DNA of 64,000 nt from an uncultured Candidatus Binatia bacterium (lineage in GTDB: Bacteria; Desulfobacterota; Binatia; UBA9968; JAJDTQ01), in contig OZ253480.1 in the NCBI GenBank assembly GCA_965261895.1, forward strand, positions 2,727,788 through 2,791,787, given 5' to 3'. The translations under genes were made by a program, and so were the position numbers. Each line of letters begins with the position of its first letter. Positions within the stretch are counted from its first letter, which is position 1. The notes under the pieces were generated by a model. It was not told the DNA's origin. It did not search any database and was given only the letters and a program-made list of their open reading frames with translations. Shown in pieces: positions 1 through 28,776 of this stretch.

Positions 1-729
1 CTGCACACCCCGCTCCACCATCAAGCCCCGGGCGCCGTTGACGGCCTCCTCGGTGGTGAAGGCATCGGCGATCCGGTAGATGTTGGCGGGCCCGTGGCCG
101 CGCTCGTCGTCGAGCACCACGGTGAAGGCCTCGGCCAACCGGTCGTTGAGCTCGTTGCCGCTCAACTGGGTGGCGGCGTAGAACAGGCCGCAACTGCCGC
201 CTTCGAGCAATCCCTGGGAGTTGATGAGACGCGCCCAGGACTCCTGGCGCGCCTCCTGTTCCTTGAATACCTCCGCCAGCCGTACCCATTCCGTCATATC
301 GGGCAGCGAGGGGTCGGGGTTCCAGCGGTTGTACCGGCGCACCACCTCCTTGATGTCCAGGGGCTCGCCGGTGAGCCACTCGATGATGTCGACGCACCGG
401 TTGCCGTGGTTGAGCTCCTGCTTGGTCCGGAAGAGGTTCTCCTCGAGCCAGTTCCGGTCCACGTCTCCGCCCCACTGGTCGACCCAGTACTGGTCCGATT
501 TGGTGAGGTCCCCGCCCACCTTCTCGACGATCTCCTTGAGGGCGGTGAAGGTGCTCTCGATCTCCCGGCCCGCCTGTTTGGTGAGCCAGATGACCTCCTT
601 GCCGCGGTCCCGCTGGTCCCAGTTGAAATAGGTATCGGCGATCTCCGCCTCGCCCGCGGCGAAGACCGCCGCCACCCGCGCCAACTCCCGGGTTGCCCTT
701 TCGGTAAAACCGTTCCCGGCGTCGCTCAT
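1..729 (-). CDS. Partial CDS (N-terminal 243 codons in window; continues beyond window start): ferritin-like (ExxH-motif) protein of unknown function, paralog of 11965..12813
   Basis: Manual minus-strand translation from ATG at 727-729 is open to the window edge (MSDAGNGFTERATRELARVAAVFAAGEAEIADTYFNW...DDERGHGPANIYRIAD). It shares blocks with the 11965..12813 protein (AGEAE..TYF; EGG..FY; DDERGHGP vs HDEMRHGP). The ATG overlaps the TGA stop of the upstream large-subunit gene (ATGA). Not in the ORF track because it runs off the window edge. Confidence 0.55.
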   Translation of the reverse strand, partial: MSDAGNGFTERATRELARVAAVFAAGEAEIADTYFNWDQRDRGKEVIWLTKQAGREIESTFTALKEIVEKVGGDLTKSDQYWVDQWGGDVDRNWLEENLFRTKQELNHGNRCVDIIEWLTGEPLDIKEVVRRYNRWNPDPSLPDMTEWVRLAEVFKEQEARQESWARLINSQGLLEGGSCGLFYAATQLSGNELNDRLAEAFTVVLDDERGHGPANIYRIADAFTTEEAVNGARGLMVERGVQ

Positions 730-3137
730 CCCTGTTCTCCTGTCGTCTTGATGTTCTGTTCGTGTATCGCCCGCCAGATGTTCTCCGGCTTGAGCGGCAG
801 CCTCATGATCTTCACGCCCAGCGGCGCCAGCGCATCCTCTATGGCGCTGGCCAGGACCACCGGCGGGCCGATGGCGCCGATCTCCCCCACTCCCTTGAAC
901 CCGCCGGGGGTGAAGGGCATGGGCGTCACCATGTGATGGAGCTCCAGATCCGGCATCTCCGCCATGGACGGTATCAGATAGTCGGCGAAGGTGCCTGACA
1001 GGAGCTGTCCCTGCTCGTCATACACCAGCTCTTCGAGAAACGCGCCCCCTACGCCGTGGGAGATGGCGCCGGTGATCTGGGTCTGAACGATCATCGGGTT
1101 CACCATGTTGCCGCAGTCGTCTACGCCGAGATACTTCAGGATCTTTGTCTCACCTGTGGCGACGTCGACCTCCACGTAGGCCACGTGCACCGCATAGGGA
1201 AAGGTGGAGAAGTTCGAGGTCCGGCCCTTGGCGTCGGGCTCGAAGCTGGTGTTGGGGTTGATGAAGTAGTGGGTGTCGTGGAGCCCCGGGTCCATGCCCG
1301 GCGGCAACTGGTTGATGGAGTAGTAGGCCAGGTTGGCGATCTCCTTGACCGTCAGCGCGACGCCGGGCTTTTCCCGGCTCAACACCATGCCGCCGGTGCA
1401 TTCGAGGGCGGCGGGATGGGTTCGCAGCGCGTGCGCGGCGATGGCCAGCATCTTCCTCTGCACCGCCTGACAGGCCTTGATGGCGGCCGAAACCGTCACC
1501 GTGGAGAACCGGCTGGCGTAGGAGCCGCTGGACGACGACACCAGGGCGCTGTCGCCTTCGAACACCTGCACGTCCTCGAAGCGGATGCCGAGCCCGTCCG
1601 CCACCACCTGGGACAGCGTGGTCTTGTGGCTCATGCTCATGTTCACGTCGCCCGAGAACACCCAGGCCTTGCCCACCGGGTCCACCCGCACCGTGACGGT
1701 CTCGTAGCCCGCGTTGTAGGCGTTGGGCCGGAGCGAGCTCAGGGGCTCCAGGATGAACGCCAGGCCGATGCCACGGTAGCGGCCCTCCCGGCGGCAGCGG
1801 TCCCGGTCCGCCAGCAGGCCGCCGTAGTCCGCGTGCTCCAGCGCCTTCCGCAGGCACGTCGGATAGTCGCCGCTGTCGTAGGTGGAGCCCGTGACACAGG
1901 TGTAGGGAAACTCGTGGGGCTGGATCAGGTTACGCAGCCGGATCTCGTCCTTGCCCAGGCCCAACTCCAGGGCGGCCCGGTCCATCACCCGCTCCATGAT
2001 GAAGTTGGACTCGGCCTTGCCGTTGGCCCGGTGGGGGCCGGCGGCGGTCTTGTTGGTGACCACGCCGAAGGACGTGGTGGCGTAGTTGTCGACGCGGTAG
2101 GGCCCGGGAATGAAGTTCGCCGTGACGAAGGCCAGGGAGGTGCCGCCGCTGGGGTAGGCGGCGCCGAGGTCCACGATCACCTTGGTCTTGAGGGCGGTGA
2201 TGCGGCCGGAGCGGTCGAAGCCAGCCTCGACGTAGTCCACCTGCGCCCGGGAATGGTGCGAGGCCACCATGTGCTCGCTGCGGCTCTCCCGCCAGCCCAC
2301 CGGCCGGTTGAGCTGAAGCGACAGCAGCGGCATCAGCACCTCTTCGGGATAGAACGCCCACTTGATGCCGAAGCCGCCGCCCATGGTGGGCGAGATCACC
2401 CGGATCTTGAGATCCGTGCGTCCCAGCGTGTCCAGCACCAGGTTCGGGAGCGCGTGCGGCACCTGGGTGGAACTCCACAGCGTCAGCAGATTGTCCCGCC
2501 GGTCGGCGCTGGCGATGACCCCGCGTGTTTCCATCGGCGTCCCGGTGTAACGGTGCTGCACAATGCGCTCCCGGATCACCACCGGGGCCTCCTTCAGCAG
2601 CTCGTCCACCGGGCCCTCGCTGAAGCGAAACTCGTACTGGATGTTGTCGGGCCACGCCTCGTAGAGCCGGGTGGTCCCCGACTCCAGCGCGGCCTCCACG
2701 TCAACCACCGGCGGCAAGGCTTCGTACTCGACCCGTACCGCCTCCGCCGCGTCCGCCGCCGCGTAACGGTCTTCCGACACCACCACGGCCACCGCCTCGC
2801 CCACGTGGCGCACCCGGTCTACCGCCAGACAGTAGTGGTCGGCGAACCGCACGCGCGGGTAGTCGCTGGTGTACGGCTTGGTCTTGGTGAAGGGAAAAGG
2901 CGACAGGGGACGGGACAGCCGCCGGACGTCCTCGCCACTCATGGCCGCCACGACGCCGGGCTGCGCAAGCGCTTCCGACAGGTCCACTCGCGTCACGCGT
3001 GCGTGGGCGTAGGGACTGCGGTGGATGCAGGCGTGGAGCATCCCGGGCACCTCGATATCGCTGATATAGGTGTTTTTCCCCTGGATGGAGTCGAAGGACT
3101 CCTTCCGCTTGATGCTCTTGCCGACGTAGGTCGCCAT
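726..3137 (-). CDS. Molybdopterin-binding large subunit of a xanthine dehydrogenase / CO dehydrogenase / 4-hydroxybenzoyl-CoA reductase family hydroxylase (CoxL-like)
   Basis: ORF 726..3263 with a GGGFG-containing molybdopterin hydroxylase signature (PTMGGGFGIKW). The likely start is the ATG at 3137 (MATYVGKSIKRKESF); upstream residues of the ORF translate the intergenic palindrome. No VAYRCSFR active-site loop seen, so not called a bona fide CO dehydrogenase. Confidence 0.85.
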   Translation of the reverse strand: MATYVGKSIKRKESFDSIQGKNTYISDIEVPGMLHACIHRSPYAHARVTRVDLSEALAQPGVVAAMSGEDVRRLSRPLSPFPFTKTKPYTSDYPRVRFADHYCLAVDRVRHVGEAVAVVVSEDRYAAADAAEAVRVEYEALPPVVDVEAALESGTTRLYEAWPDNIQYEFRFSEGPVDELLKEAPVVIRERIVQHRYTGTPMETRGVIASADRRDNLLTLWSSTQVPHALPNLVLDTLGRTDLKIRVISPTMGGGFGIKWAFYPEEVLMPLLSLQLNRPVGWRESRSEHMVASHHSRAQVDYVEAGFDRSGRITALKTKVIVDLGAAYPSGGTSLAFVTANFIPGPYRVDNYATTSFGVVTNKTAAGPHRANGKAESNFIMERVMDRAALELGLGKDEIRLRNLIQPHEFPYTCVTGSTYDSGDYPTCLRKALEHADYGGLLADRDRCRREGRYRGIGLAFILEPLSSLRPNAYNAGYETVTVRVDPVGKAWVFSGDVNMSMSHKTTLSQVVADGLGIRFEDVQVFEGDSALVSSSSGSYASRFSTVTVSAAIKACQAVQRKMLAIAAHALRTHPAALECTGGMVLSREKPGVALTVKEIANLAYYSINQLPPGMDPGLHDTHYFINPNTSFEPDAKGRTSNFSTFPYAVHVAYVEVDVATGETKILKYLGVDDCGNMVNPMIVQTQITGAISHGVGGAFLEELVYDEQGQLLSGTFADYLIPSMAEMPDLELHHMVTPMPFTPGGFKGVGEIGAIGPPVVLASAIEDALAPLGVKIMRLPLKPENIWRAIHEQNIKTTGEQG

Positions 3138-3172
3138 GGTCGTCTTCTTGCCTTCTATATCAGACCGGGCCA

Positions 3173-3193
3173 GGGCGGGTTTGAAACCCGCCC
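3173..3193. repeat. Solo 21-bp core palindrome GGGCGGGTTTGAAACCCGCCC (same core as the MITE family)
   Basis: Perfect inverted repeat between the large-subunit start and the small-subunit stop. The adjacent CCTAC supplies the small-subunit TAG stop (3194-3196). Confidence 0.8.
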
Positions 3194-3670
3194 CTACGAG
3201 CGCATCCGCTCCGCCGCCTGCTTGACCGCCTTGATGATGTTCAGATAGCCGGTGCAACGGCACAGGTTGCCGGAGTAGGCCCGGCGGATCTCCTCGTCGG
3301 ATGGGTCAGGGTTCTCGTCGAGAAACGCCACCGTGGTCATCAGCATGCCGGGGGTGCAGAAGCCGCACTCCAGTGCGTCGCATTCCCAGAACGCTTCCTG
3401 GATCGGATGCAGCTCTCCGTTCGGGGCCAGGCCTTCCACCGTGCGGATCTCCGCCCCGTCGGCCCGGGGCGCCAGCACCTGGCACGATTTCACGGTGAGG
3501 CCGTTCATGATGACGGTGCAGGCGCCGCAGTTGCCGGTGTCGCAGCCCACGTGAGTGCCCTTGAGGCCGGCCTTGTCGCGGATGAGATCCACCAGCAGGA
3601 GGCGCGGCTCCACCTCGAACGAGTAAGCCGTTCCGTTGATGGTGGTGTGGACCGTGATCCGTTGCATCAA
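3194..3670 (-). CDS. [2Fe-2S]-binding small subunit of molybdenum hydroxylase (CoxS-like)
   Basis: 158 aa with a plant-type ferredoxin motif ([11 protein letters not shown]) and a second cluster motif (CGFCTPGM...CRCTGY). Confidence 0.9.
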
Positions 3671-3727
3671 CCGTCATCCGTGAAGGGAACCCATTCGGAC
3701 TGCCTGTTGTCGAATGGCTTGACCCGC

Positions 3728-3968
3728 AAATCCAAACCCTCTCCCTTTTGGGAGAGGGTGGCCTGGTTCCGTCCCAAATCCAACCCCTCTCCCTTTGGGA
3801 GAGGGTGGCCGAAGGCCGGGTGAGGGCGCCCCAACAGCCCTCGTTGTCCCATTCCTTGCCGCATCCAAACTGGCAGCTTTCATCGGCGGACCCTCACCCC
3901 AACCCTCTCCCAGAGGGAGAGGGGGTCGGAGGCTGCTTTCTCCAAAACCAGAGAGGGGGTCGGAGGCG
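3728..3968. repeat. Tandem REP-like hairpin repeats (unit about 47 bp; palindrome CCCTCTCCC-TTTT-GGGAGAGGG) in the coxM-like/coxS-like spacer
   Basis: Palindromes at 3735-3761, 3782-3808 and 3901-3933, plus a half copy at 3947-3968. Units start with CAAATCCAA(C)CCCTCTCCC. Seen only at this locus in the window. Confidence 0.75.
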
Positions 3969-3987
3969 TTGCGGAAGAGGTTTTCCT

Positions 3988-4875
3988 TCAAGATACCGGC
4001 CCCTCGTCCAGCCGCGCATGGGCTCTTTCCCGCGCCCGGGTCAGGGCCCGGGTGACCACCACCGGGGTCATTTCCCTGCGGTACTCCGCGGACGCGTGAA
4101 CGTCGCTCACCGGATCCGCAGCCTTTCCGGCCAGCGCGGCGGCTTCCGCCAGGTCGGCGTCCGTCAGCTTCGTGCCCCGGAGCGACCGGCCCGCGGCTTC
4201 ACAGACGAGGGCCGTGGGGCCGACCGCGCAGAGGGCGACGCGGGCATCGCTGCAGGAGCCGTCCGGCGACAGGCTCACCAGCGCCGCGGCACCCACCACC
4301 GCGTAGTCGCCGGCCCGGCGCGTGAGCTTGATGTAGGCGTGGCCCCAGACACCTGCCGGAACCGGGACGTCCACGGACGTTACCATCTCGTCATGGGACA
4401 GACAGGTGTCGAACGGACCGGAAAAGAAATCGTGGGCGGCGATGGTGCGGCTTCCGCCGGCGGATCGGGCCGTCAGGGTGGCCCGTAGTGCCAGCACCGC
4501 GGGGGCGAGGTCGCCCGACGGGTCCGCCTGGCTCAGGGTGCCGCCGAGGGTGCCGAGATTCCGGATGTGGATGTCGCCGATGCTCGCGGCGGCCTCGGAA
4601 AGGAGCGGCTGACGCCGCAGGAACGTACGTTCAAGGGTCCGCTCGGTCACCAGCGCGCCGATCCGCACGGAATCCGCGTCCTCTGTTACGTCGGTCAACT
4701 CCCGGAGTCGTCCGATGTCGATGATCACCCGCGGCCGAATCAGCCTCAGCTTCAGCATCGGCAGGAGGGACTGCCCTCCCGCCATGAGCCGCGCCTCTTC
4801 GCCATACTCGCGGAGCAGCGCGAGCGCTTCGGGAATCGAATCCGGCGCCCGGTACTCGAAGGGAGGGGGGATCAT
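3988..4875 (-). CDS. FAD-binding medium subunit of molybdenum hydroxylase (CoxM-like)
   Basis: 295 aa with FAD-binding PCMH-type motifs (MAGGQSLLPMLKLRL). Confidence 0.85.
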   Translation of the reverse strand: MIPPPFEYRAPDSIPEALALLREYGEEARLMAGGQSLLPMLKLRLIRPRVIIDIGRLRELTDVTEDADSVRIGALVTERTLERTFLRRQPLLSEAAASIGDIHIRNLGTLGGTLSQADPSGDLAPAVLALRATLTARSAGGSRTIAAHDFFSGPFDTCLSHDEMVTSVDVPVPAGVWGHAYIKLTRRAGDYAVVGAAALVSLSPDGSCSDARVALCAVGPTALVCEAAGRSLRGTKLTDADLAEAAALAGKAADPVSDVHASAEYRREMTPVVVTRALTRARERAHARLDEGPVS

Positions 4876-4890
4876 TCGAAAGGGGGCGCG

Positions 4891-5889
4891 CTACCCGCGG
4901 GAGCGCGCCAGCTTCCACTCCTCTCCGCGAACGGTCTCGTGAAAGAGCTCGTCCACGTTGGGTTCCTTCTTGATCATGCCCTGCTCCCGGGAGTAGCGCG
5001 CCAGGGTCCCGAAGTTGTTGCGGTTGGTGTCGTTGAGCCCGTAGACCCACGGGTCCTCGCCCAGCAGCTCGATCTGCTCCTCCCAGGAGTCCCGGAAGAA
5101 CGCCAGCGGCACGACACGGGGATTGTCCATCCTCCGGTAGGCTGCCTGCTTGGACTTCTCGAACGCCACCATCATGTTCATGGGCACCCAGGGGTGCTTG
5201 TCCACGATCTCCTGCTTGATGACCGTGGTGTGCATGATGGGAAAGATGCCGGTGCGCTGGAAATAATCGAGCTCGACCTTCTTGGGATCGTCGAAGATGC
5301 GCTTGACCCGGGTGTCGCCCTCCAGGACCGGCGCGATGATGTCGGGATAGATGACGGCATCCAGCTCGCCCTCGGCGAGCATCTCCTCGACCCGCTTCCC
5401 CTTGGGAAGGCGTTCCATCCGGAGACCTTCCGGCGGATCGAAGGGGACGTCCTCTTCCTTCTCGGCCCGCCATTCAATGTCCTTGAAAGAGACGCCGTAC
5501 TCGTCCTGCAGGGTGCCGCGGATCCACAAGAGCGCCGTGGCTTGCCAGTTCTTGAGCCCCACGGTCTTGCCTTTAAGGTCCTTGGGCTCCTGGATGCCCT
5601 TGTTCGCGTTGATGAAGATGAAGCCGTGGCGGAACCGGCGGTGGAGAAAAACCGGGATGGCCGTGAGATCGTCCGCCTCGCCCCGGTCCTTGGCCAGCAG
5701 ATAGGACGAGCCCGATTGCTCGGCGACGTCGAACTCGCGGAAACGCGACACGCGCCAGTGCCGCGTGGACGAGTCCATGTCCGTCAGCACGGTGAGCTCG
5801 ATGCCGTCCGGCTGCACCGTTCCCTCCTTGAGGGCCCGGATACTCTCGTAGTCGCCGCAAGCCAGTGTCAAATGAAGTTTCTCGGCCAT
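4891..5889 (-). CDS. PhtD/4,5-dihydroxyphthalate decarboxylase-like protein (NMT1/THI5 periplasmic-binding-like fold, no signal peptide)
   Basis: ORF 4891..6009. Probable start is the ATG at 5889 (MAEKLHLTLACGDYE) with a GGAGG RBS. It is a paralog of 47265..48257. The stop lies 15 bp upstream of the coxM-like start, suggesting one operon. The functional name is inferred from family resemblance only. Confidence 0.55.
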   Translation of the reverse strand: MAEKLHLTLACGDYESIRALKEGTVQPDGIELTVLTDMDSSTRHWRVSRFREFDVAEQSGSSYLLAKDRGEADDLTAIPVFLHRRFRHGFIFINANKGIQEPKDLKGKTVGLKNWQATALLWIRGTLQDEYGVSFKDIEWRAEKEEDVPFDPPEGLRMERLPKGKRVEEMLAEGELDAVIYPDIIAPVLEGDTRVKRIFDDPKKVELDYFQRTGIFPIMHTTVIKQEIVDKHPWVPMNMMVAFEKSKQAAYRRMDNPRVVPLAFFRDSWEEQIELLGEDPWVYGLNDTNRNNFGTLARYSREQGMIKKEPNVDELFHETVRGEEWKLARSRG

Positions 5890-5954
5890 TTCGTTACCTC
5901 CGAAGTCTCGCGCGGCCTGGAACCCCGGGAGCCAAAAGCCGCTGGAATACGAGG

Positions 5955-5981
5955 TTGTAGGGGCGGGTTTCAAACCCGCCC
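5955..5981. repeat. Solo core palindrome (TTGTAGGGGCGGGTTTCAAACCCGCCC)
   Basis: Same 21-bp palindrome as 3173..3193, in reverse orientation. Confidence 0.8.
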
Positions 5982-6033
5982 GCGCCCGCATTGCGCCGTC
6001 GCCCGACACGGGCCGGCAGCGCGGAGTATCCGT

Positions 6034-6735
6034 TCAGTCGATGGCGAGCCGTTTCGCCCGCCGCACGAAATAGTCCCACATGCTGCCCAGCCGGTGCGGC
6101 GTGTAGATCTGGTCGTACTTCTCGCGCGCCTCCTCGTCGTTACTCCAGGTGGGATCTCCGGCAGCGGCGGCAAGGAGCTGTATGCGACACGCCTTTTCCA
6201 GAAAGATCGCGTACAGGGTGGCGGTCTCCACCGATTCGGCCACGACGGTGGAGCCGTGGTTTTTCATCAGCACGGCCCGGTACCCTTCCAGCTTCTTGGC
6301 CAGCTCCACCCCCAGCTCGGGCGTCCGGATCAGGATCGTGGTGTAGTCGAAGAGCGGGAGCCCATCGTGGAAGATGGAACCCTCGTGGCTCACGGGGCGC
6401 AGCGGCTGTCTCAGGGAGCCGAATGCGGTGGCGTAGGGCGGATGGCTGTGGATAACGCAGTTCACGTCCGGCCGCGCCCGGTAGATCTCCGTGTGGATGA
6501 ATACCTCGGAGTGGCGCTCGTAATCGCCCTCGATCTTGTTGCCGTCGAAGTCCACCTTGATGATGTGGTACGGGCGGATCTCCTCGAAGCCGTAGCTGTG
6601 GGGCTTCATCAACATGACGTTCTCGCCCGGCACCCGGGCCGACACGTGCCCCAGGATATTGTCCCAGTGCCCTTCGAGGGCCAGGATGTTGCACGAAATC
6701 GCCACCTTGTCTCTCAACGCTACCAAGTCGTCCAT
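6034..6735 (-). CDS. Class II aldolase/adducin-domain protein
   Basis: 233 aa with conserved aldolase II metal-binding histidines (HSHPPYATA). Confidence 0.75.
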   Translation of the reverse strand: MDDLVALRDKVAISCNILALEGHWDNILGHVSARVPGENVMLMKPHSYGFEEIRPYHIIKVDFDGNKIEGDYERHSEVFIHTEIYRARPDVNCVIHSHPPYATAFGSLRQPLRPVSHEGSIFHDGLPLFDYTTILIRTPELGVELAKKLEGYRAVLMKNHGSTVVAESVETATLYAIFLEKACRIQLLAAAAGDPTWSNDEEAREKYDQIYTPHRLGSMWDYFVRRAKRLAID

Positions 6736-6750
6736 GAAACCCCCTTGAAA

Positions 6751-6888
6751 GTCCTTCGACTCCGCTCCGCTTCCTTCGACTCCGCTTCGCTACGCTCAGG
6801 ACGAACGGTTGTGGAAGGCCTCTCTCCGTTCGTCCTGAGCGTAGCGAAGCGGAGTCGAAGGAAGCGGAGCGGAGCGAAGTCGAAGGAC
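6751..6888. repeat. 138-bp near-perfect hairpin (about 58-bp arms, 17-nt loop) between the aldolase start and the CoA-ligase stop
   Basis: The left arm gtccttcgactccgctccgcttccttcgactccgcttcgctacgctcaggacgaacgg is reverse-complementary to 6826-6888. The arms also contain an internal direct repeat. Confidence 0.8.
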
Positions 6889-6897
6889 CGCATTATC

Positions 6898-8442
6898 CTA
6901 TCCCCTGAGCTTGAACCGCTGTATCTTGCCAGTCACCGTCTTGGGCAGATCGTCCACGAATTCCACCCAGCGCGGGTACTTGTACGGTACCAGACTGCCC
7001 TTGACGAAGTCCTGCAGCTCCTGGGCCAGCCCGTCGGCGCCGTGGTGCTCGGTCTTGAGGATGACGTAGGCCTTGGGCTTGATGAGGCCGTCGGCGTCGG
7101 CCTGTCCGGTCACCGCCGCCTCGAGCACCGCCGGATGCTCCATCAGCGCGTTCTCCACCTCAATGGGCGAGACCCACAGGCCGCCCACCTTGAGCATGTC
7201 GTCGGAGCGGCCACAGTACCAGAAATAGCCGTCGTCGTCCCGATAGTACGTGTCGCCGGTCTTGAGCCACTCCCCGAGCATGGTGCGCTGGGTCTGCTCG
7301 TGTTTGTTCCAGTAGTAGGGTGCGGTGGCGTCGCCGCTGACGTACAGGTTGCCCACCTCGCCGTTGGGCACTTCACGTCCCTCGTCGTCCACCACCTTGG
7401 CCACGAAGGCCGGCGTCACCTCGCCGCTGCTTCCCGCCTTTGCCCGTCCCGGCCGGTTGGCGAGGAAATCGTGGGTCGCCTCGGTGGAGCCTACGACGTC
7501 CAGCAGCTCCACGCCGACTTTCTCCCGCCACTGGTTGAAGAGGGCCGGCGGCAGCGGCTCTCCGGAGGACAGGCAGACCTTCAGCGAGCTGAGGTCGTAC
7601 TCCTTCTCCACCCGCAGCATGCGGGCGTAGAGCGTCGGCACCGAGAAGAAGAAGGTGGGCCGGTACCGCTCGATGGTTTGGAGTATTTTTTCCGGATCCG
7701 GCCGTTCGGGCCACAGCACGCCGGCGGCTCCGAAACGGAAGGGGAAGTAAAGGGAGTTCCCCAGCCCGTAGGAAAAGAACAGTTTGGAGGCGGACAGGCA
7801 GACGTCGTCCTCGGTCATGCCGAGCACGGGCTTCACGAACAGATCGGTGATGGTGATCATGTCGTGCTGGAGATGGACCGCGCCCTTGGGGTTGCCTGTG
7901 CTCCCCGAGGTGTAGTTCCACATGACGACGTCGTCGCGTCCGGTGGGTTCCGCTTCGAGCTCCGCGGACTGGCCCTCCAGCAGGGCGTCCCAACCCATGG
8001 CGCTACCCCGCGGGGTTCCCACCACCACCACGTGGCGCAGGTGGCGCGGCCTTTCGCTGATGGCCTCGATCTCGGGCAGCGCGGACTCGTGCACCACGAC
8101 GATGCGAGCCCGGCTGTCGTTGAGGAGGTACTCGTAATCCCCGGCCTTCATCCAGGGATTCACCGGAATGGGGACGGCGCCGATCTTGATGGCGCCGAAG
8201 AAGCTGAAAGCGAACTCCGGGCAGTCGGGAAGCACCAGCAGGACGCGCTGTTCCGTGTCAAGCCCGAGTCCGCGGAATGCGTTCCCGGCGCGGTTGACCG
8301 CCTCCTGGACCTGCCGGTAGGTGATCCGCTGGTCCTCGTACAGGATCGCGGTGCGCTCGCCGCGGCCGGCGGTGACGTTGTCGTCGACGAACGTGGTGGC
8401 CGCGTTGTAGGGGTCCGGCAGTTCGAGTCGCGGAGCGCTCAT
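6898..8442 (-). CDS. AMP-dependent aryl/acyl-CoA synthetase (benzoate-CoA ligase-like)
   Basis: 514 aa with the AMP-binding motif YTSGSTGNPKG and C-terminal GKIQR. Confidence 0.8.
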   Translation of the reverse strand: MSAPRLELPDPYNAATTFVDDNVTAGRGERTAILYEDQRITYRQVQEAVNRAGNAFRGLGLDTEQRVLLVLPDCPEFAFSFFGAIKIGAVPIPVNPWMKAGDYEYLLNDSRARIVVVHESALPEIEAISERPRHLRHVVVVGTPRGSAMGWDALLEGQSAELEAEPTGRDDVVMWNYTSGSTGNPKGAVHLQHDMITITDLFVKPVLGMTEDDVCLSASKLFFSYGLGNSLYFPFRFGAAGVLWPERPDPEKILQTIERYRPTFFFSVPTLYARMLRVEKEYDLSSLKVCLSSGEPLPPALFNQWREKVGVELLDVVGSTEATHDFLANRPGRAKAGSSGEVTPAFVAKVVDDEGREVPNGEVGNLYVSGDATAPYYWNKHEQTQRTMLGEWLKTGDTYYRDDDGYFWYCGRSDDMLKVGGLWVSPIEVENALMEHPAVLEAAVTGQADADGLIKPKAYVILKTEHHGADGLAQELQDFVKGSLVPYKYPRWVEFVDDLPKTVTGKIQRFKLRG

Positions 8443-8491
8443 GCTCGTTTCAATTCGGAGCCCGTACCGGCCGACAGCGCGATACGGGCGC

Positions 8492-8512
8492 GGGCGGGTT
8501 TGAAACCCGCCC
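8492..8512. repeat. Solo core palindrome GGGCGGGTTTGAAACCCGCCC
   Basis: Perfect 21-bp inverted repeat followed by CTACA. Confidence 0.8.
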
Positions 8513-8562
8513 CTACACTCTCGCCTTCCTGCGGCGTCGACACCTGGCGGGACGGGTTCGGG

Positions 8563-10020
8563 CTATTCGCCTCCCACCATCTCCGACCGTTGTTCCGTGG
8601 CCACGACCACGGACTTGACCTCGCTGTAGTGCTCCACCGCCTCGTTGCCGTGCTCCTTGCCGACGCCGCTCTGCTTGACGCCGCCGAAGGGCAGCTCGTC
8701 GTAGATGATCTGCGCCGAGTTGACCCAGGTGTAACCGGCATCGAGCTTCTCGGCGGCGTACAGGGCCTGGTCGATGTCCTGGGTCCAGATCGAGGAGCCC
8801 AGGCCGAAGATGGAATCGTTGGCTTGAGCCAAGCCCTCTTCGAGATTCTTGATCCGAACCACCGGCAGTGCGGGGCCGAACACCTCGTCTTTCAACAGCT
8901 TGGACTCGAGGTCGACATCCACCACGACGGACGGATTCAGAAAGTAGCCCTTGTCGTACTCGTCGCCGGTGGGGCGGTCGCCGCCCACCAGCACCTCGGC
9001 GCCGCGCTGCACCGCGTCCGCCACCTGCTCCTCCACCTCTTCGCGCTGCGCCTTGGTGTGCAGCGGACCGAGCATGGTGCCGCGCGTCAGGCCGTTGCCC
9101 ACCCGCAGCTTGCGGACCTTCTCCACCAGCTTCGCGATGAACTCGTCGGCGATCTTGTCCTGGAGGTAAAGCCGCTTCACCGCCAGGCACGCCTGGCCGC
9201 AGTTGAAAAAACGGCCCACGGAAGCCGCGCTCACCGCCCGATCGATGTTGGCGTCGTCGCACACGATCATGGGGTCGCTGCCGCCCAGCTCGAGGGTGAC
9301 CCGCTTGACCTCCTGGGCGGCCACCTCCATGATCCGTTTGCCGGTATCGGTCGCGCCGGTGAAACCGATCTTCCTGATGACGGGGTGCCGCAGAATCTCC
9401 TCGCCCACGGTCCCGCCCGGCCCGGTCACCATGTTGATGGTGCCCTTGGGAAGGCCCGCCTGCTGCACCAGCTCGACGCACCGGGTCGCGGTCAGCGGCG
9501 TGGTGCTGGCGGGTTTGATGACCATGGCGTTGCCGGCGAGCAGCGCCGGGCCCACCTTGTTGCCCATCAACGACACCGGGAAGTTCCACGGTATGATGGA
9601 GCCCACGACGCCCATGGGCTTGCTGATGATCAACCCGTAGCGCCCGTCATCCAGCTTCACGTAGCCGCCGCGCAAGGTCTTGGCCATGCCGGCGTAGTGC
9701 TCCAGGGTGTGGGCGAAGCGGCGGATTTCCAGCACCGACTCGCGCAATGCCTTGCCCTGCTCCTTGGTGAGTAGCTGGGTGAGCTCCTTCTCGTTCTCCA
9801 GCACCAGACGCGCGGCCTCGGACAGGCAGGCGCCGCGCTTGGCCGCAGAAAATTTACCCCACTCCACCGCCGCCTCTGCCGCGGCCGCCACCGCCCTCTT
9901 GACGTCTTCGGCCGTACCCTTGGGTACGGTATCCACCAACTCGCCGGTGGCGGGGTTGTGGATGGACGTGGTCTCGCCGCTTGCGGTATCCGTATACTCA
10001 CCTGCAATGAACATTTGCAT
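8563..10020 (-). CDS. NAD(P)-dependent aldehyde dehydrogenase
   Basis: ORF 8563..10194. Probable start is the ATG at 10020 (MQMFIAGEY). ALDH motifs are present (catalytic Cys in FFNCGQAC; ELGGS). Confidence 0.85.
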   Translation of the reverse strand: MQMFIAGEYTDTASGETTSIHNPATGELVDTVPKGTAEDVKRAVAAAAEAAVEWGKFSAAKRGACLSEAARLVLENEKELTQLLTKEQGKALRESVLEIRRFAHTLEHYAGMAKTLRGGYVKLDDGRYGLIISKPMGVVGSIIPWNFPVSLMGNKVGPALLAGNAMVIKPASTTPLTATRCVELVQQAGLPKGTINMVTGPGGTVGEEILRHPVIRKIGFTGATDTGKRIMEVAAQEVKRVTLELGGSDPMIVCDDANIDRAVSAASVGRFFNCGQACLAVKRLYLQDKIADEFIAKLVEKVRKLRVGNGLTRGTMLGPLHTKAQREEVEEQVADAVQRGAEVLVGGDRPTGDEYDKGYFLNPSVVVDVDLESKLLKDEVFGPALPVVRIKNLEEGLAQANDSIFGLGSSIWTQDIDQALYAAEKLDAGYTWVNSAQIIYDELPFGGVKQSGVGKEHGNEAVEHYSEVKSVVVATEQRSEMVGGE

Positions 10021-10227
10021 CGAACGAACTCTCCTCGTGTATCTTGATTTGCAGCCCGCGGGACTTGGCCGGAATTTTGCGACCGAACCGGAGAGGGTCC
10101 GTTTCGGCGAATTTTCGTCAGTCGAAGGCTGAAACAGAATGAACCACGTCAGCGCAGGCCTGTCAAGGAACCGTGTTGACCGGACCCGGGGCATTCTGTA
10201 TCAATAAGTCGGGTAGGAGCGATTCAA

Positions 10228-10515
10228 ATGACCGTCGATATTTCGGCAATCGCCATCATCGTGTCAGTCGTGGGGGTGGGGGTCGCGTTGGGCAGAATGA
10301 TACAACGCCTGCGCGCGGACATGCATAGGGAAATGGACCAGCGATTTGCCGAGGTCGGCAGGCGTTTCGTCGATATGGGCCAGCGCATCTCCGACAACGG
10401 CCAGCGTATTTCCGAACTGCGCGAGGACGTGCGCGAGATGCGGCAGGACGTCAGCAGCCTGCGTGAAGAAATGGGGGCTCTGCGCGAGCGCACAACCCAA
10501 GCCGCCTCTGCATGA
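10228..10515 (+). CDS. Small membrane-anchored coiled-coil protein, function unknown
   Basis: 95 aa with an N-terminal hydrophobic helix and then repeated QRISD/QRISEL heptad-like segments. AGGAG RBS 8 nt upstream. Confidence 0.5.
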   Translation: MTVDISAIAIIVSVVGVGVALGRMIQRLRADMHREMDQRFAEVGRRFVDMGQRISDNGQRISELREDVREMRQDVSSLREEMGALRERTTQAASA

Positions 10516-10560
10516 ATCCGAAAGACCCCCGTGTTCCGGGGAGGGCGACCTCGGAACACG

Positions 10561-11772
10561 TCAAAACCGTGTCCGGGTCTCCTTGCCGCTCATCTCGACG
10601 TAGACCTTCTCCGACGTGACCGGCTTGCCGTCGAGGCAGTCCTTGAGCCAGTCCACGATGATGGTGCGCGCCGCCGGGTTGCGGATGGAGTGGCGCTCGC
10701 CCTCGTAGACATAGAGGACCTTGGGACAGGTAGCCTCGTCCATGAGCTGGTAGACGAACTCGATGGGACAGAGCTCGTCGTCTTCTCCCGCCGCCACCAT
10801 GTAGGGGCACTGGATCTTGGCCGCCACCCCTTCGAGGGTCAGGGTCTTGCAGAATTCGTCGAACTTCGCCTCGTCGTCGTAGCCGGCCATGTACATGTAG
10901 TTGAGCTTGAAGGTCGGGGCGGCGGTGTTGAAGATGGTGTACTGGCTGGGCTCCATGCACACGCCGGCCACGGCGCAGGCCTTGAAGCCGGGCTCGGCGG
11001 CCGCCATGCGCGTGCCCCAGTAGGAGCCCATGCTGGAGCCGTAGATGGCCATCCGGTCGCCGTCGATCTCGGGACGGGTCTTGAGATAGGCGTAGGCCGC
11101 CTTGGCGCCGTCCTCGCAGTTGGAGGCGGTGACGGTGATGCCGCGTTCCCGGGTCTCGCCCTGCCCCGGCCCGTCGATGGAGAGGATCGCCATTCCCCGC
11201 TGCAGCAGCGGATCGCCCATGAGCGGATTGTCCTCCTTCACGCCGTCCATGCCCGGCTGATACAGGATGCACGGGAACCGCTCCCCCGGCGCCGGCTTGT
11301 GCGGCAAATGCAACAAAGCCGCCTGCTTACCGCCCGGCACGGAAAGGTCCACCCGTTCGATGGGATGATCGGCGAACCCGATGTAGCGGTCGTAACAGTC
11401 TCGCTTGCTCTCCGCCCAGGCCATCCGCTGCGGGTTGCCGTCCTCGAAGATCCCCCACTGGGCGGCGGTATAGTAGGTCGCCGCCACGTAGTAGTGCTCG
11501 CGGGCCTCCACCGTGTGCCCCAGCGCCTCGGCGGCGCGTCCCTGCTGCTCCCGCTTCTCGGCGGCGCGGGAGAACTCCCGCGGGAAGTCCGTGAACTTCT
11601 GAACCCGCTGTCCGATGCCCCTTAGCTCCCCGGCAATGCCCGGACCGCAGTTCCGCAGCATCTTGCCCGAGCGCCCCTGATCGAAGTCGAGGCCGCTCAC
11701 CTTGATGACCTGATCGAGTATCCAGCGTTGCTCCTGCCAGCGTTTCGTTTTTCTCTCGGTGCTCGCGCGCAT
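10561..11772 (-). CDS. Alpha/beta-hydrolase fold protein (esterase/peptidase-like)
   Basis: 403 aa with a GSSMG nucleophile elbow. Confidence 0.65.
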   Translation of the reverse strand: MRASTERKTKRWQEQRWILDQVIKVSGLDFDQGRSGKMLRNCGPGIAGELRGIGQRVQKFTDFPREFSRAAEKREQQGRAAEALGHTVEAREHYYVAATYYTAAQWGIFEDGNPQRMAWAESKRDCYDRYIGFADHPIERVDLSVPGGKQAALLHLPHKPAPGERFPCILYQPGMDGVKEDNPLMGDPLLQRGMAILSIDGPGQGETRERGITVTASNCEDGAKAAYAYLKTRPEIDGDRMAIYGSSMGSYWGTRMAAAEPGFKACAVAGVCMEPSQYTIFNTAAPTFKLNYMYMAGYDDEAKFDEFCKTLTLEGVAAKIQCPYMVAAGEDDELCPIEFVYQLMDEATCPKVLYVYEGERHSIRNPAARTIIVDWLKDCLDGKPVTSEKVYVEMSGKETRTRF

Positions 11773-11964
11773 GGTGCGTTTCTCCTTGCCGATTGGTGTT
11801 CCGGGTGCCGGCCGATCCGTGGAACGGCATGCGCCGCCGGTTCTTGATTCTTTCGCTCAGGTCTATATACAATCGCCGCGGCCGTAATCAATGTCCGAGA
11901 GCGAAACCCGTAACTTGTCGCCTGCAACAATACCGGCCACCGGCGGCCTTCGAGCGAGGGTGAG

Positions 11965-12813
11965 ATGGCGAGGCTTGAACCGGACGCGAAACTCGATGAG
12001 CGTATAGCGGTGCTCGAAGCCGCCCCCTTGCGCTGGTGGGCCGGGGAGGCCGAAGTGGTCCGGACCTACTTCTCCAATCCCCGGACCCGGGAGGACGACC
12101 TGCACTGGCTAAGGCTGCAGGCGGCGCGGGAGCTGGGTACGGTGGAACGGCTGCTCCAGGCCCTGCCCCACGACCTCGCGCAGATCGAGACGGCAGTCAG
12201 CCGCGGTTCCTTCGAGGCCTCGACGCGGTCCATCTACGAAGAGACGCGGCATTACCGGCTCCTGGCGAACATCATGGAGCAGATCGCCGGGGAGAGACCG
12301 GATCCACAAGAGCTGCTGGCCCTCTCGGGTTGCCAGCGTGAACGCAGGGGGCACCCCGACCTGCCGGCCATGACCGCTGAGATCGAGGCCACCAAGCGGC
12401 TCCACGAAACCTACGGTGATCTTGCGGAGGTGGCACTGGGCTTTTCCGAGGGGGCGGGAGCGGCCATCTTCTACATCGGGAACAGGCTTCTTGAACTCCC
12501 CTACACCTCCTATTCCGGCGGCGCCGTCGAAAGGGCCATCGCCGAGGCTATGGGCGTCATCTTCCACGACGAGATGCGTCACGGACCCGTTCACATTCCC
12601 CGCATCGCCAAGGCGATTCGCAACGACGACGACCTGGAGAAGGCGAGGCAAATCATCACCGAGAAGGCCATTGCCCACCTGAGGCTCCGCAACGAAACCT
12701 TCGGCCATCCGTTGACCGAAGCACGCATGGCCGAGATCGATGCCGGCGTCCATGTCGAGCCTCTGCCGGTGGATTACAGGAACATCACGCCTGTTTCTCC
12801 GTACTCGGCGTGA
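11965..12813 (+). CDS. Ferritin-like (two ExxH motifs) protein of unknown function; paralog of the partial CDS at 1..729
   Basis: 282 aa with EETRHY and HDEMRHGP motifs. Blocks are shared with the 1..729 protein. Confidence 0.55.
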   Translation: MARLEPDAKLDERIAVLEAAPLRWWAGEAEVVRTYFSNPRTREDDLHWLRLQAARELGTVERLLQALPHDLAQIETAVSRGSFEASTRSIYEETRHYRLLANIMEQIAGERPDPQELLALSGCQRERRGHPDLPAMTAEIEATKRLHETYGDLAEVALGFSEGAGAAIFYIGNRLLELPYTSYSGGAVERAIAEAMGVIFHDEMRHGPVHIPRIAKAIRNDDDLEKARQIITEKAIAHLRLRNETFGHPLTEARMAEIDAGVHVEPLPVDYRNITPVSPYSA

Positions 12814-12987: not shown

Positions 12988-13497
12988 ATGAGGATTCGGC
13001 CGCAGACTGTCTTCAGTTTCCTGGTCCTCCTGTTTTTTGCCTTCGTGATCTGGGGGGCTAAGGATTGGCCCGTGAAGGCGCAGCTCTACCCCTGGGTGAT
13101 CGGCATTCCCATGCTTGTGTTGGCCGCCCTCCATCTCGTCATGGATTTTAAGGAGGGAAGCGGAAAGAGCACTTCTCCGTCCACGCTGGCCAACGCTCCA
13201 GGGACCACGCCGGCCGACTTCCAGTTCACGAAAGGCATCGACCCCGTCCTGGCCAGGCAGCGGACGATCAATATCTTTTCGTGGATTTTCGGTTTCCTCC
13301 TGGCATGCTGGCTCGCCGGTCTTTCCGTGACGGTCCCACCGTTCGTCTTCCTCTACCTTAGGGTCAAGTCGGGCGAGGGATGGGCCCTGTCTCTCGTGCT
13401 GACCGGCGCCATCTGGCTCCTGTATTGGGGTCTCTTCGAACAGTTGCTTCGGCTCCCAATTCCCGAGGGAAAAATCTATTTCTGGCTGGGGCTATGA
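12988..13497 (+). CDS. TctB-family small membrane subunit of a tripartite tricarboxylate-type transporter
   Basis: 169 aa, about 4 TM helices, immediately upstream of the TctA-family gene. Confidence 0.6.
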   Translation: MRIRPQTVFSFLVLLFFAFVIWGAKDWPVKAQLYPWVIGIPMLVLAALHLVMDFKEGSGKSTSPSTLANAPGTTPADFQFTKGIDPVLARQRTINIFSWIFGFLLACWLAGLSVTVPPFVFLYLRVKSGEGWALSLVLTGAIWLLYWGLFEQLLRLPIPEGKIYFWLGL

Positions 13498-13564
13498 CAA
13501 TGTGTGGCGTCTCGAAGCATGGGTTGTGTGACGCATTGGCAGCTTGCCGGCGTAAGAGGGTCCC

Positions 13565-15079
13565 GTGATTGACGCCGCCATAAGTGGTTTGCTCCAGGTA
13601 CTGTCCTGGCCGGCTTTCGGTTTCCTTCTGATCGGCGGAGGAATCGGCTTCGTCGTGGGCATTCTACCCGGCCTTGGGGGGTTGACCACCCTGGCCCTGA
13701 TGCTCCCCTTCGCCTACACGATCCAGGAGCCCATCGCGGCCTTCTGCTTCCTGCTTGGAATGCACGCCATCACCGGTACCACCGGAGACATCACCTCCAT
13801 CCTCTTCGGCATCCCGGGCGAGGGAACCTCGGCAGCTACGATCATGGACGGCTACCCCATGACCAAGAACGGCCAGGCGGGAAGGGCTCTGGGGGCTGCC
13901 CTGATGAGCTCACTCGTAGCCGGACTTGAAGGCGCCGTCATTCTGGCTATCTCGATCCCGATCATGCGGCCTCTCGTCCTGTTTTTCGGCGCACCCGAGC
14001 TTTTCATGCTCGCCATCCTGGGGATCACTTTTCTGGCCACTCTCAGCAGTTCTTCGCTCAGCAAGGGCGTCCTGGCCGGCGGTATCGGGCTCGCGATCTC
14101 CTCGGTTGGCATTGAAGATCATACGGGGACGCTTCGCTATACCATGGGGACCATCTATCTCTGGGAGGGATTGAGTCTGGCGCCTGTCGTCGTGGGGCTC
14201 TTCGCCTTTCCGGAGATCGTGGACCTGGCGGTGAGGGGTTCAAGCATTGCCGAATCCAAGGTGGGCAAAATCAGTGGAGTGATGGAGGGGGTCAAGGATA
14301 CCTTCCGGCATTTCTGGCTCACCATGCGTTGCGGCATGATCGGCGTTCTTGTCGGGGCCGTGCCCGGAGTAGGGGGCGGCGTCTCCCAGTGGATGGCTTA
14401 CGCCCATGCGGTGCAGAGTTCCAAGGACAAGCACCGTTTCGGCAAGGGGGCGGTGGAAGGAGTACTGGGACCCGGCGCCGCGAATAACTCCAAGGAAGGA
14501 GGGAACCTCATCCCGACCGTAGCCTTCGGAGTTCCGGGGACCACAGGAATGGCGATTCTCCTCGGGGCTTTTCTGATCGTCGGCCTGACGCCCGGCCCGG
14601 AAATGCTGACCAAGCACCTCGACGTCACCCTCGCGATGGTCTGGATACTGGTCATCTCCAATATCCTTGCCGCCGGCGTCGCTTTCCTGTTTCTCAGCCA
14701 GCTCGTCAAGCTCACCTTCGTGCGGGGAAATCTGCTCATTCCTTTCCTGGTTGTGTTCGTATTCCTCGGCGCCTTTTCGGCAAACAACGATTTCGCGGAT
14801 ATCGTGGTGGCCTGTGTTTTCGGCGTGCTGGGCTATTTCATGGTCCTTTTCGGATGGCCGAGGGCTCCGTTCGTTCTCGGTCTGGTCTTGGGGCGCCTGG
14901 CGGAGAGGTACCTCGGGATCTCGCTGGGCGCCTACGGCACCGGCTGGCTTCTCCACCCGCCCGTAATCGTCATGATAGTGATATTGTTGGGCAGCGTTTC
15001 CTATAGTGTGTACAAGAGGATGAGAAACAGCGATCAGGCGGTTGAGGGCCGCGTAGAACAGGACGAAGAAGGGGTATGA
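13565..15079 (+). CDS. TctA-family large membrane subunit of a tripartite tricarboxylate-type transporter
   Basis: 504 aa polytopic membrane protein with TctA signature blocks (GIPGEGTSAATIMDGYPM). Confidence 0.85.
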   Translation: MIDAAISGLLQVLSWPAFGFLLIGGGIGFVVGILPGLGGLTTLALMLPFAYTIQEPIAAFCFLLGMHAITGTTGDITSILFGIPGEGTSAATIMDGYPMTKNGQAGRALGAALMSSLVAGLEGAVILAISIPIMRPLVLFFGAPELFMLAILGITFLATLSSSSLSKGVLAGGIGLAISSVGIEDHTGTLRYTMGTIYLWEGLSLAPVVVGLFAFPEIVDLAVRGSSIAESKVGKISGVMEGVKDTFRHFWLTMRCGMIGVLVGAVPGVGGGVSQWMAYAHAVQSSKDKHRFGKGAVEGVLGPGAANNSKEGGNLIPTVAFGVPGTTGMAILLGAFLIVGLTPGPEMLTKHLDVTLAMVWILVISNILAAGVAFLFLSQLVKLTFVRGNLLIPFLVVFVFLGAFSANNDFADIVVACVFGVLGYFMVLFGWPRAPFVLGLVLGRLAERYLGISLGAYGTGWLLHPPVIVMIVILLGSVSYSVYKRMRNSDQAVEGRVEQDEEGV

Positions 15080-15100
15080 GCACCGATAGGTACGGGACCA

Positions 15101-15289
15101 CTAGTGTGGTGTGTCACAAATACGGTTATGAAGATGCGAGGGCATTTTGGTTGTCGGCAAGGCGCGATGACTTGTAGGGGCGACCGGCGGTCGCCCCCCA
15201 GTGGCGTGCACCACGCGAGGAAGAGCAACGCAGCCGACGGCCAAAAGGACCCGCAGATTCATAACCTTATTTGTGAGACACCACACTAG
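15101..15289. mobile_element. MITE copy A (189 bp; TIR CTAGTGTGGTGTGTCACAAATAC; core variant GGGCGACCGGCGGTCGCCC)
   Basis: Terminal inverted repeats ctagtgtggtg...caccacactag. It sits between the TctA-family gene and the DUF1989 gene. ORF-track entry 15104..15289 is its translation. Confidence 0.8.
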
Positions 15290-15304
15290 ATTCAGGGAGG
15301 GCCA

Positions 15305-15937
15305 ATGATGAGCACCGATGCAGACAAGATCCCCGGAAAAATCATCGACGACAGAATCATCGGACCAAGGGGGCATTGCGCCTGGGAAGTCCGGGAAGGA
15401 GAGGTGTTCCGCATCGTCGATATCGAGGGGCAGCAGGTGATGGATTTCCTGGCTTTCAATCTGAATGATTTGGATGAAAGACTCTCCCCGGAGAACACCT
15501 TGAACCTTAACAAGCAGATTTATCCGACGGTCGGCTACACCCTGCTCTCGGATAAAGCCGGCAAGCTCATGACGATTGTGGCGGATACTTGCGGCACCCA
15601 CGACATGCTCGCAGGGGCCTGCTCCAGCTATACCAACGAATACCGCTACGGTGTTCCGGGCGCTGCCAATTGCCGGGACAACTTCGTCGCCGCTCTCAAA
15701 CCGTGGGGACTTGGATGGAAAGACATACCCTACAACATGAACGTCTTTATGAATTGCCCCATCCAGGCTGACGGGACGTTCTCCATCGAACCACCGAAAT
15801 CCAAGGCGGGCGATTACATCGACTTCAGGGCCGACATGGATGTCCTGGTTGCCGGGTCGAACTGCCCCCAGGTGCTCAATCCCTGCAACTCCGGGGATTT
15901 GAAGCCGTTGCGGGTGGTCCACTACAGGCCCGGATAG
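15305..15937 (+). CDS. DUF1989 (urea-carboxylase-associated) family protein
   Basis: 210 aa with the family-typical C-terminal block (GDYIDFRADMDVLVAGSNCPQ). Confidence 0.6.
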   Translation: MMSTDADKIPGKIIDDRIIGPRGHCAWEVREGEVFRIVDIEGQQVMDFLAFNLNDLDERLSPENTLNLNKQIYPTVGYTLLSDKAGKLMTIVADTCGTHDMLAGACSSYTNEYRYGVPGAANCRDNFVAALKPWGLGWKDIPYNMNVFMNCPIQADGTFSIEPPKSKAGDYIDFRADMDVLVAGSNCPQVLNPCNSGDLKPLRVVHYRPG

Positions 15938-15980
15938 CAAGATCTTCTTCTGGTCCCAAACAAGGGGAGCTTCTAACCAT

Positions 15981-17072: not shown

Positions 17073-17160
17073 TTTAGCACAGGGCGTCACGGGGGTCGCT
17101 GTCCGGAGTCTTCCCCCGTGACGAAGCCATGCGACAGGTCGAAAAGGAAGGCTGGGAAGG

Positions 17161-18555: not shown

Positions 18556-18664
18556 GTCGAGCCCGAGACGTTTACGTTTGCCTACGCCTTCGTCGAGACG
18601 GTACCGCCGAGATCTCCGAACTGCGGGGCGCCGGAGCGCGCCCCGGTTTCGAAATCGCGGAATA

Positions 18665-28740: not shown

Positions 28741-28776
28741 TCGATGGCTTCTCCCTACCAACGACGGGGGTGTGCG

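Follow-up and report, generated by a model that had tools for sequence, protein, structure and literature searches.

The pathway for furoate and hydroxymethylfurfural (HMF) encoded by hmfABCDE-FG has been described in Cupriavidus basilensis and Pseudomonas, and it comprises a coenzyme A (CoA) ligase, a three-subunit molybdenum (Mo) dehydrogenase, a crotonase-family enzyme, a UbiD decarboxylase and an aldehyde dehydrogenase (PMC8091172). The same set of enzymes is encoded by a catabolic operon that lies partly in a 64-kb stretch of DNA from an uncultured Candidatus Binatia bacterium (contig OZ253480.1, positions 2,727,788 to 2,791,787, analysed as a whole and called the window hereafter) and that recurs in orthologous loci of related genomes. 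The likeness is one of gene content, and the described hmf clusters have no counterpart of the diiron-type protein, the PhtD-like decarboxylase, the class II aldolase or the Tct transporter module found here. The diiron-type protein, designated A, and a second copy at the head of the Tct module, designated B, are the subject of this study. We consider it somewhat more probable than the contrary that A and B are, at the level of enzyme class, O2-activating dimetal-carboxylate oxygenases for a (hetero)aromatic carboxylate or its CoA ester, judging from their conserved motifs, predicted models and gene contexts.

The two genes are located as follows.

1 to 729, minus strand: paralog A, the N-terminal 243 residues of a protein of about 287 residues, a stop-free translation with a diiron-type motif
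11965 to 12813, plus strand: paralog B, a complete open reading frame (ORF) of 282 residues with a diiron-type motif, first gene of the accessory B-Tct module

Alignment of A and B over 232 residues gave 28% identity (E = 3e-21), by which they are true, distantly related paralogs, as a first-pass annotation of this DNA had proposed. All the sequence blocks that it had quoted were recovered, namely AGEAEIADTYF versus AGEAEVVRTYF, ELNH versus ETRH, and DDERGHGP versus HDEMRHGP. It had also supposed that the upstream part of the gene for A was missing; it is instead the 3′ end that is cut by the window edge, since full-length orthologs of A (81 to 91% identity) have 287 residues and about 44 C-terminal residues lie beyond position 1. 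A tblastn search found no third paralog in the window, and a 282-residue ORF at 28744 to 29592 that was considered as one proved to encode TatD. Proteins of the window are 95 to 99% identical to those of the Binatia chromosome OZ244869.1 (L008/L056).

Conservation was assessed in an alignment of 79 diverse family members with a mean column identity of 22%, numbered according to the full-length A ortholog P0082. Twelve columns were conserved in at least 90% of the members, and six of these are E56, E105, H108, E176, E209 and H212; E56 and H108 are invariant, and the other four are each at least 90% conserved. The putative ligand set is E56, E105xxH108, E176 and E209xxH212 in A, and E56, E93xxH96, E162 and E203xxH206 in B. 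At the level of sequence, E/ExxH/E/ExxH is the exact pattern of carboxylate-bridged diiron enzymes. Since all six positions are retained family-wide at such low overall identity, the blocks quoted earlier are not a product of chance. Conserved residues outside the ligand set are W48, Q52, R248 and F252.

The AlphaFold models of B (predicted local distance difference test, pLDDT, 90.3) and of P0082 (pLDDT 91.3) are all-helical. Each of the six residues is found in the middle of a helix, on two hairpins of helices with a linker of 25 residues between them, and helices three and four are interrupted where the ligands sit. The family to which A and B belong is one of cytosolic helical-bundle proteins of about 250 to 290 residues. 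The paired carboxylate and histidine ligands noticed earlier in both proteins are part of a complete conserved set carried on long helices of confidently modelled helical bundles. Their former assignment to diiron four-helix-bundle enzymes stands at the motif level, and with regard to fold class we read a diiron-type site with a ferritin-type ligand set, membership of the ferritin-like superfamily being favoured but not proven.

When the 79-sequence profile was searched against the PDB, it retrieved R2lox (Mycobacterium tuberculosis Rv0233, PDB 3EE4/4AC8) at E values of 0.0065 and 0.022. The ExxH, E and ExxH of the family align to the R2lox stretches EEAKH, VEG and DDERRH, which we take to be the metal ligands E101/H104, E167 and E202/H205. 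The likeness is borderline: the A/B family has motifs of its own, AGEAE at the N-terminus and RLRMRNEQFGxPL at the C-terminus, and R2lox, unlike A and B, is not operon-linked to aromatic catabolism. In Pfam, DUF455 matched weakly in 8 of the 79 members (best E = 4.4e-6), and Rubrerythrin and Ferritin each matched weakly in two. A and B themselves fall below threshold for every Pfam model, are about 60 to 80 residues longer than the MiaE/DUF455/aldehyde-deformylating oxygenase (ADO)-like proteins, with extra N- and C-terminal helices, and stand in a different genomic context.

With R2lox as the closest relative of known structure, for which we know of no enzymatic role, and with Rubrerythrin and Ferritin among the weak matches, A and B might be thought of as passengers of the operon and not as catabolic oxygenases, being either ferritin-like proteins of R2lox, rubrerythrin or Dps type with a ligand-binding or protective role, or non-redox dimetal enzymes; the lack of a reductase gene would fit as well. 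We regard this as highly improbable. In several clades the family has a fixed place in catabolic operons, beside decarboxylases, CoA ligases, crotonases, Rieske oxygenases and ring-cleavage enzymes, its members with their 250 to 290 residues and extra helices are larger than storage or Dps proteins, and the conserved W48, Q52, R248 and F252 suggest a substrate pocket.

The fold-class list comprised the haem-oxygenase-like diiron oxidases (HDOs) CADD, HrmI, UndA and BesC together with the ferritin-like MiaE-like ADO, PaaC, CmlI, R2lox and ribonucleotide reductase R2, and for A the ferritin-like entries in it had the highest sequence identities, 15 to 17%. HDOs bind their metals through three histidines and three carboxylates and have an HxxxD/ExxH helix. 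The A/B family has two conserved histidines and four glutamates in its set, with two ExxH motifs and no third conserved histidine; at position 201 B has H and A has D. Haem_oxygenas_2 and TENA_THI-4 were matched by none of the 79 members, no sequence or profile similarity to TenA, CADD, UndA, BesC or HrmI was seen, and the only sequence-level links are to ferritin-like families. These data speak against A and B being HDOs of the UndA/BesC/CADD/SznF type that would carry out oxidative decarboxylation, C-C cleavage or N-oxygenation. What could be said for such an assignment is that, in one Binatia clade, a family member directly follows a PF14518 (Haem_oxygenas_2, iron-containing redox enzyme) gene (L047, 9246 to 10756, and similarly L048-L067), within a cluster of MaoC, HpcH, thiolase and luciferase-like genes; when the family profile was compared with this PF14518 protein by hhalign, the probability was 0.3%, that is, no homology, and we judge the assignment unlikely. 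The two neighbours might form a heteromer of two different helical-bundle iron proteins.

The aryl-CoA epoxidases PaaAC and BoxB of aerobic hybrid pathways are a further described group. Their context is matched in part, since an aryl-CoA ligase, a crotonase-family enzyme and an aldehyde dehydrogenase are present in the operon. No match to PF05138 (PaaA_PaaC) was found in A, B or any of the 79 members, there was no BoxB homology, and PaaB/PaaD partners are lacking. A PaaE/BoxA-type reductase or ferredoxin gene is absent from the operon and within 10 kb of it (window operon and L001). The crotonase of the operon is an ordinary 260-residue protein and not of BoxC size.

Searches of Pfam, NCBIfam and PDB sequences with A and B gave no match, and a 32-sequence family profile searched against the same three gave nothing significant. 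All homologs named in the sources searched are labelled hypothetical protein, and the literature on DUF455, on aromatic degradation in Binatia and on phthalate/UbiD hybrid pathways describes neither the family nor the operon. An exhaustive hidden Markov model search over 1.84 billion representatives found the family to comprise only 467 clusters at 50% identity. GTDB species genomes, scanned as well, yielded 361 stretches that encode a relative, with the best loci mostly in Candidatus Binatia metagenome-assembled genomes and a few in Dehalococcoidia, Alphaproteobacteria and Burkholderiales. The family is rare and uncurated: neither Pfam nor NCBIfam has a model of it, and none of its members has been solved or characterised. 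Domain fusions were set aside as a clue to function, because those in P0245 (methyltransferase) and P0177 (CN_hydrolase fragment) seem to be products of faulty gene calling.

For comparison of the operon, 25 loci with A orthologs 80 to 100% identical to P0082 were fetched, making 26 operons with the window. As far as the flanks reach, the gene order is common to all 25: alpha/beta hydrolase, aldehyde dehydrogenase, AMP-forming ligase, class II aldolase, PhtD-like gene, an optional coxM-coxS-coxL cassette, A, crotonase (ECH), UbiD and TauE permease. The crotonase gene lies 3′ of A in 25/25 loci, and UbiD and TauE follow as well except in L014. The window breaks off within A, short of the A-crotonase junction, and contains these core genes:

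10561 to 11772, minus strand: alpha/beta hydrolase (Peptidase_S9/DLH-like), the first gene of the core operon and kept as first in the orthologous loci
8563 to 10194, minus strand: aldehyde dehydrogenase (Pfam Aldedh, 1.5e-163), true start probably later
6898 to 8442, minus strand: aryl-CoA ligase of the benzoate-CoA ligase family (TIGR02262, 602 bits versus a cutoff of 375)
6034 to 6735, minus strand: class II aldolase/adducin-family protein (Pfam Aldolase_II; a match, below threshold, to the model for PhtC, 3,4-dihydroxyphthalate decarboxylase)
4891 to 6009, minus strand: PhtD-like decarboxylase with a periplasmic-binding-protein fold (PDB 9JP7, 4,5-dihydroxyphthalate decarboxylase, E = 1.5e-55), start probably later, orthologs being about 332 residues long

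These matches bear out the PhtD-like protein, aryl-CoA ligase and aldehyde dehydrogenase named by the first-pass annotation, and the surrounding genes do form an aromatic/heteroaromatic acid catabolic cluster as it had suggested. Its statement that the components could not be placed in a described pathway needs to be narrowed, for they can be placed in part: the logic is closest to that of the hmf pathway, to which two homologs of phthalate-type decarboxylases and the diiron-type protein are added. The best PDB match of the UbiD protein is the furandicarboxylate decarboxylase HmfF (6H6X/6H6V, 2.6e-55), and it is about 100 residues longer than PtHmfF; phthaloyl-CoA decarboxylase was rejected as its identity, with Pcd matching at 1e-16. 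The A-crotonase junction (A ends at about 10861 in the coordinates of the fetched loci) is a hotspot of 1 to 4-kb insertions of lower G + C content at third codon positions (GC3), found in L008, L010, L011, L014, L016, L023 and L026. The insertions carry defence- or mobile-type genes for AAA_21/AbiEii-like ATPases, DUF4276, DNA methylase and DUF900. Hidden reductase genes were considered at this junction and rejected, the AAA_21, DUF4276 and DNA methylase genes being found instead.

Between the PhtD-like gene and A, the window carries a three-subunit Mo hydroxylase:

3988 to 4875, minus strand: FAD-binding medium subunit (CoxM; Pfam FAD_binding_5, CO_deh_flav_C)
3194 to 3670, minus strand: [2Fe-2S] small subunit (CoxS; Pfam Fer2_2, Fer2)
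726 to 3263, minus strand: large subunit of the CoxL/xanthine oxidase family (Pfam Ald_Xan_dh_C, MoCoBD_1, MoCoBD_2), likely start ATG at 3137

CoxL scores below every NCBIfam equivalog cutoff, the top-scoring model being glyceraldehyde dehydrogenase alpha, and its best PDB matches are CoxL, quinoline 2-oxidoreductase and Kdh. It was rejected as a CO dehydrogenase because it has neither an AYRCSFR nor an AYRGAGR active-site loop. The 318-nt gap between coxM and coxS contains, at 3725 to 3930, three palindromic copies of about 40 nt that resemble repetitive extragenic palindromes (REP), with the core CCCTCTCCC-N3-4-GGGAGAGGG. The window has no further occurrence of this pattern, for which chance would predict 0, and the same REP-like element was found in the hydrolase/B intergenic region of L062 and L073. 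An ORF of 105 residues at 3674 to 3991 on the minus strand was rejected as a gene; its GC3 is 0.52 and it consists of translated REP-like palindromes.

As first reported, the ATG of A (729 to 727) overlaps the TGA of the large subunit (728 to 726), in the sequence gATGAgc. An overlap of coxL stop and A start was found in 18 of the 21 operons with an intact coxL, window counted (ATGA in 14, TGATG in 4), and the Shine-Dalgarno sequence of A (cAGGAGa) lies inside the CoxL tail. The translational overlap is therefore real and conserved. The cox cassette is wholly absent in 4/25 loci (L001, L020, L024 and L026), where A directly follows the PhtD-like gene, and it is decayed in a fifth (L016). Since A is intact in all five, it is not an obligate partner of the Mo hydroxylase, contrary to the original proposal of a diiron protein coupled to that enzyme; the ATGA overlap is tight operon packing where the cassette sits and no sign of obligate partnership. 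Co-occurrence with Mo hydroxylases, which had been put forward as a check, is not consistent across the family, and only B orthologs co-vary with cox. Among the clades with examined neighbourhoods, no Mo hydroxylase adjoins family members outside this Binatia operon; in one Binatia clade, CoxS/CoxM homologs are encoded on the opposite strand at a distance of about 9 kb.

B is transcribed divergently from the core operon. The transporter genes already noted beside B were found to be TctB, TctA and, after an intervening DUF1989 gene, TctC. Besides B, the intergenic region and the genes of the module are as follows, the genes being assigned by gene call and Pfam:

11773 to 11964, no strand: divergent intergenic region between hydrolase and B, with a conserved promoter-like block, TTGATT...GGTCTATATACAATC, starting at 11844
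12988 to 13497, plus strand: TctB
13565 to 15079, plus strand: TctA
15305 to 15937, plus strand: DUF1989
15981 to 17072, plus strand: TctC
17161 to 18555, plus strand: MmgE/PrpD
18665 to 19816, minus strand: Amidohydro_2, the end of the accessory B module (12988 to 19816 without B)

The whole module of about 8 kb is absent from L001, L020, L024 and L026, which are the loci without cox; there, the hydrolase gene adjoins genes for an alpha/beta-hydrolase and a prepilin peptidase, which in the window border the module. L016 (OY729432.1, 1 to 10000) represents a decayed intermediate. It has retained DUF1989 and codons 1 to 34 of B, and has lost TctBA, TctC, PrpD and Amidohydro_2; its CoxM has an internal deletion and its CoxL is reduced to residues 652 to 802, while its core genes, A included, are intact at more than 90% identity. 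Conversely, the B module is present in every cox-positive genome with visible upstream sequence (the window, L056/L008, L062/L004, L073/L006 and L069/L007). A neighbour-joining tree of A put the cox-less loci in at least three places, so they are not monophyletic. B, and not the coxL-overlapping A, thus co-varies with the Mo hydroxylase. In this small sample of related genomes, the joint loss or decay of cox and the B module while A stays suggests, but does not prove, that A belongs to the core pathway independently of cox and that the B-Tct module and cox make up one accessory unit.

In alignments, the block at 11844 to 11878 reads TTGATT-N14-18-TATATACAAT, and the 15-nt GGTCTATATACAATC within it does not vary among the five orthologous hydrolase/B intergenic regions aligned. 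The block may serve the B-Tct operon as promoter or operator.

The same loci bear on whether the diiron-type protein might be a redox partner of the Mo hydroxylase, such that CoxLMS would draw electrons from the substrate and pass them to the diiron centre, which would dump them on O2 or use them for a second oxygenation, in a hydroxylase-oxygenase pair without a reductase. The coxL-A overlap with the Shine-Dalgarno sequence in the CoxL tail, the absence of a dedicated reductase gene from the operon and within 10 kb, and the loss of B together with coxMSL would all be in keeping with it. However, A is kept where cox is missing or decayed, a nearby Mo hydroxylase is missing from most other clades of the family, and for B the link is one of covariation, in which the whole 8-kb module takes part and not B alone. 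We think such a pairing decidedly unlikely. A more specific form of the idea, in which B (possibly A) and the Mo hydroxylase would pass the two electrons set free in water-dependent hydroxylation at Mo through the [2Fe-2S] and FAD subunits to the diiron centre, so that one substrate-derived electron pair pays for both hydroxylations of a (hetero)aromatic acid, the second a ring oxygenation after O2 activation, and in which the family would join ferritin-type ligands to a TenA/haem-oxygenase-like architecture, appears very unlikely and is offered as speculation.

Beyond this operon, PhtD-like/NMT1-fold proteins are the most persistent neighbours of the family, being found in five separate clades. 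In Dehalococcoidia the context is Rieske LigXa, ADH, PhtD-like and A-like, and a relative with 47% identity is also located near a PhtD-like/NMT1-fold protein. B-like proteins with 55 to 64% identity occur in a triplet of B-like, MobA-like NTP transferase (PF12804) and PhtD-like genes; this triplet is found in distant Binatia lineages (L083-L086, L045, L071) with no Mo hydroxylase nearby and is followed in some loci by an amidohydrolase or a GalT/HIT-like transferase. Distant A-like genes are accompanied by an ADP-forming CoA ligase, ECH, a thiamine diphosphate (ThDP) enzyme, TctC and TauE. A ThDP-dependent enzyme of about 565 residues is encoded directly 3′ of an A-like gene (56% identity) and of a B-like gene (66%), with TctC nearby (L078, 10001 to 18931; L092, 6713 to 9283), and is a second recurrent partner besides the PhtD-like protein. 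The Binatia genomes that carry A loci also have a third paralog (L030-L040) of about 273 residues and 37 to 40% identity to A, and in L031, the one locus examined, its gene order is glyoxalase, FAA hydrolase, Amidohydro_2, paralog and aminotransferase. Other family members lie near Rieske oxygenases. What these contexts have in common is that aromatic or organic acids are broken down, in many cases by way of CoA thioesters.

To return to the oxygenase reading, we infer from the conserved E, ExxH, E and ExxH that the A/B family would bind a carboxylate-bridged dimetal centre (Fe/Fe or Mn/Fe), and that this centre may react with O2 and oxidise, by hydroxylation or in another way, a (hetero)aromatic carboxylate or its CoA thioester. 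A would be a fixed component of the core CoA-dependent catabolic operon, probably acting next to the PhtD-like decarboxylase, either upstream or downstream of it. B would head an accessory uptake and upper-pathway module (TctBAC, DUF1989, PrpD-like and Amidohydro_2) and work together with the three-subunit Mo hydroxylase.

Several points weigh against this reading. The ferritin-like sequence links are weak (R2lox at E = 0.0065, DUF455 in 8/79 members), and the spatial clustering of the six residues is deduced from motif and helix positions. The covariation of cox and B, itself suggestive, comes from five loci, four clean and one decayed, in related genomes, and the tree behind the independent losses is that of a single 243-residue protein. 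With regard to the hmf comparison, HmfA has 1015 residues (PMC8091172) versus about 803 for the CoxL here, and no UbiX (HmfG) was seen within 10 kb of the operon, unlike in hmf. The absence of a PaaE/BoxA-type reductase or ferredoxin gene, given above, belongs here too.

The catabolic island seems to extend to about 21 kb of the window. Further on, the ORFs sampled between 22000 and 64000 are of housekeeping type (thymidylate kinase, DNA polymerase III delta′, methionyl-tRNA synthetase, TatD, shikimate dehydrogenase, GroEL, a nitrilase-family protein and two NADH dehydrogenase (complex I) subunits). An open frame of 1735 codons at 4567 to 9774 on the plus strand runs antisense to four minus-strand genes; it was rejected as a gene, its GC3 being 0.65 versus about 0.9 for true genes, and is a shadow ORF of high-GC DNA.

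Binatia is an uncultured phylum of soil and sediment whose catabolic chemistry is largely unknown. The family described here has kept a textbook O2-activating dimetal motif despite being uncharacterised, and in Binatia A has a constant place within a CoA-dependent operon in which parts of the furoate/HMF and phthalate pathways are combined. Because the B-Tct module and the Mo-hydroxylase cassette have repeatedly been lost together, two separable functional units can be defined. If a reductase-free couple of the kind considered above were true, it would be a new type of two-enzyme oxygenation system. Work on the family might uncover a novel step of ring oxygenation that acts on furan, phthalate or pyridine-type (di)carboxylates, compounds that matter as lignocellulose inhibitors and plastic monomers.

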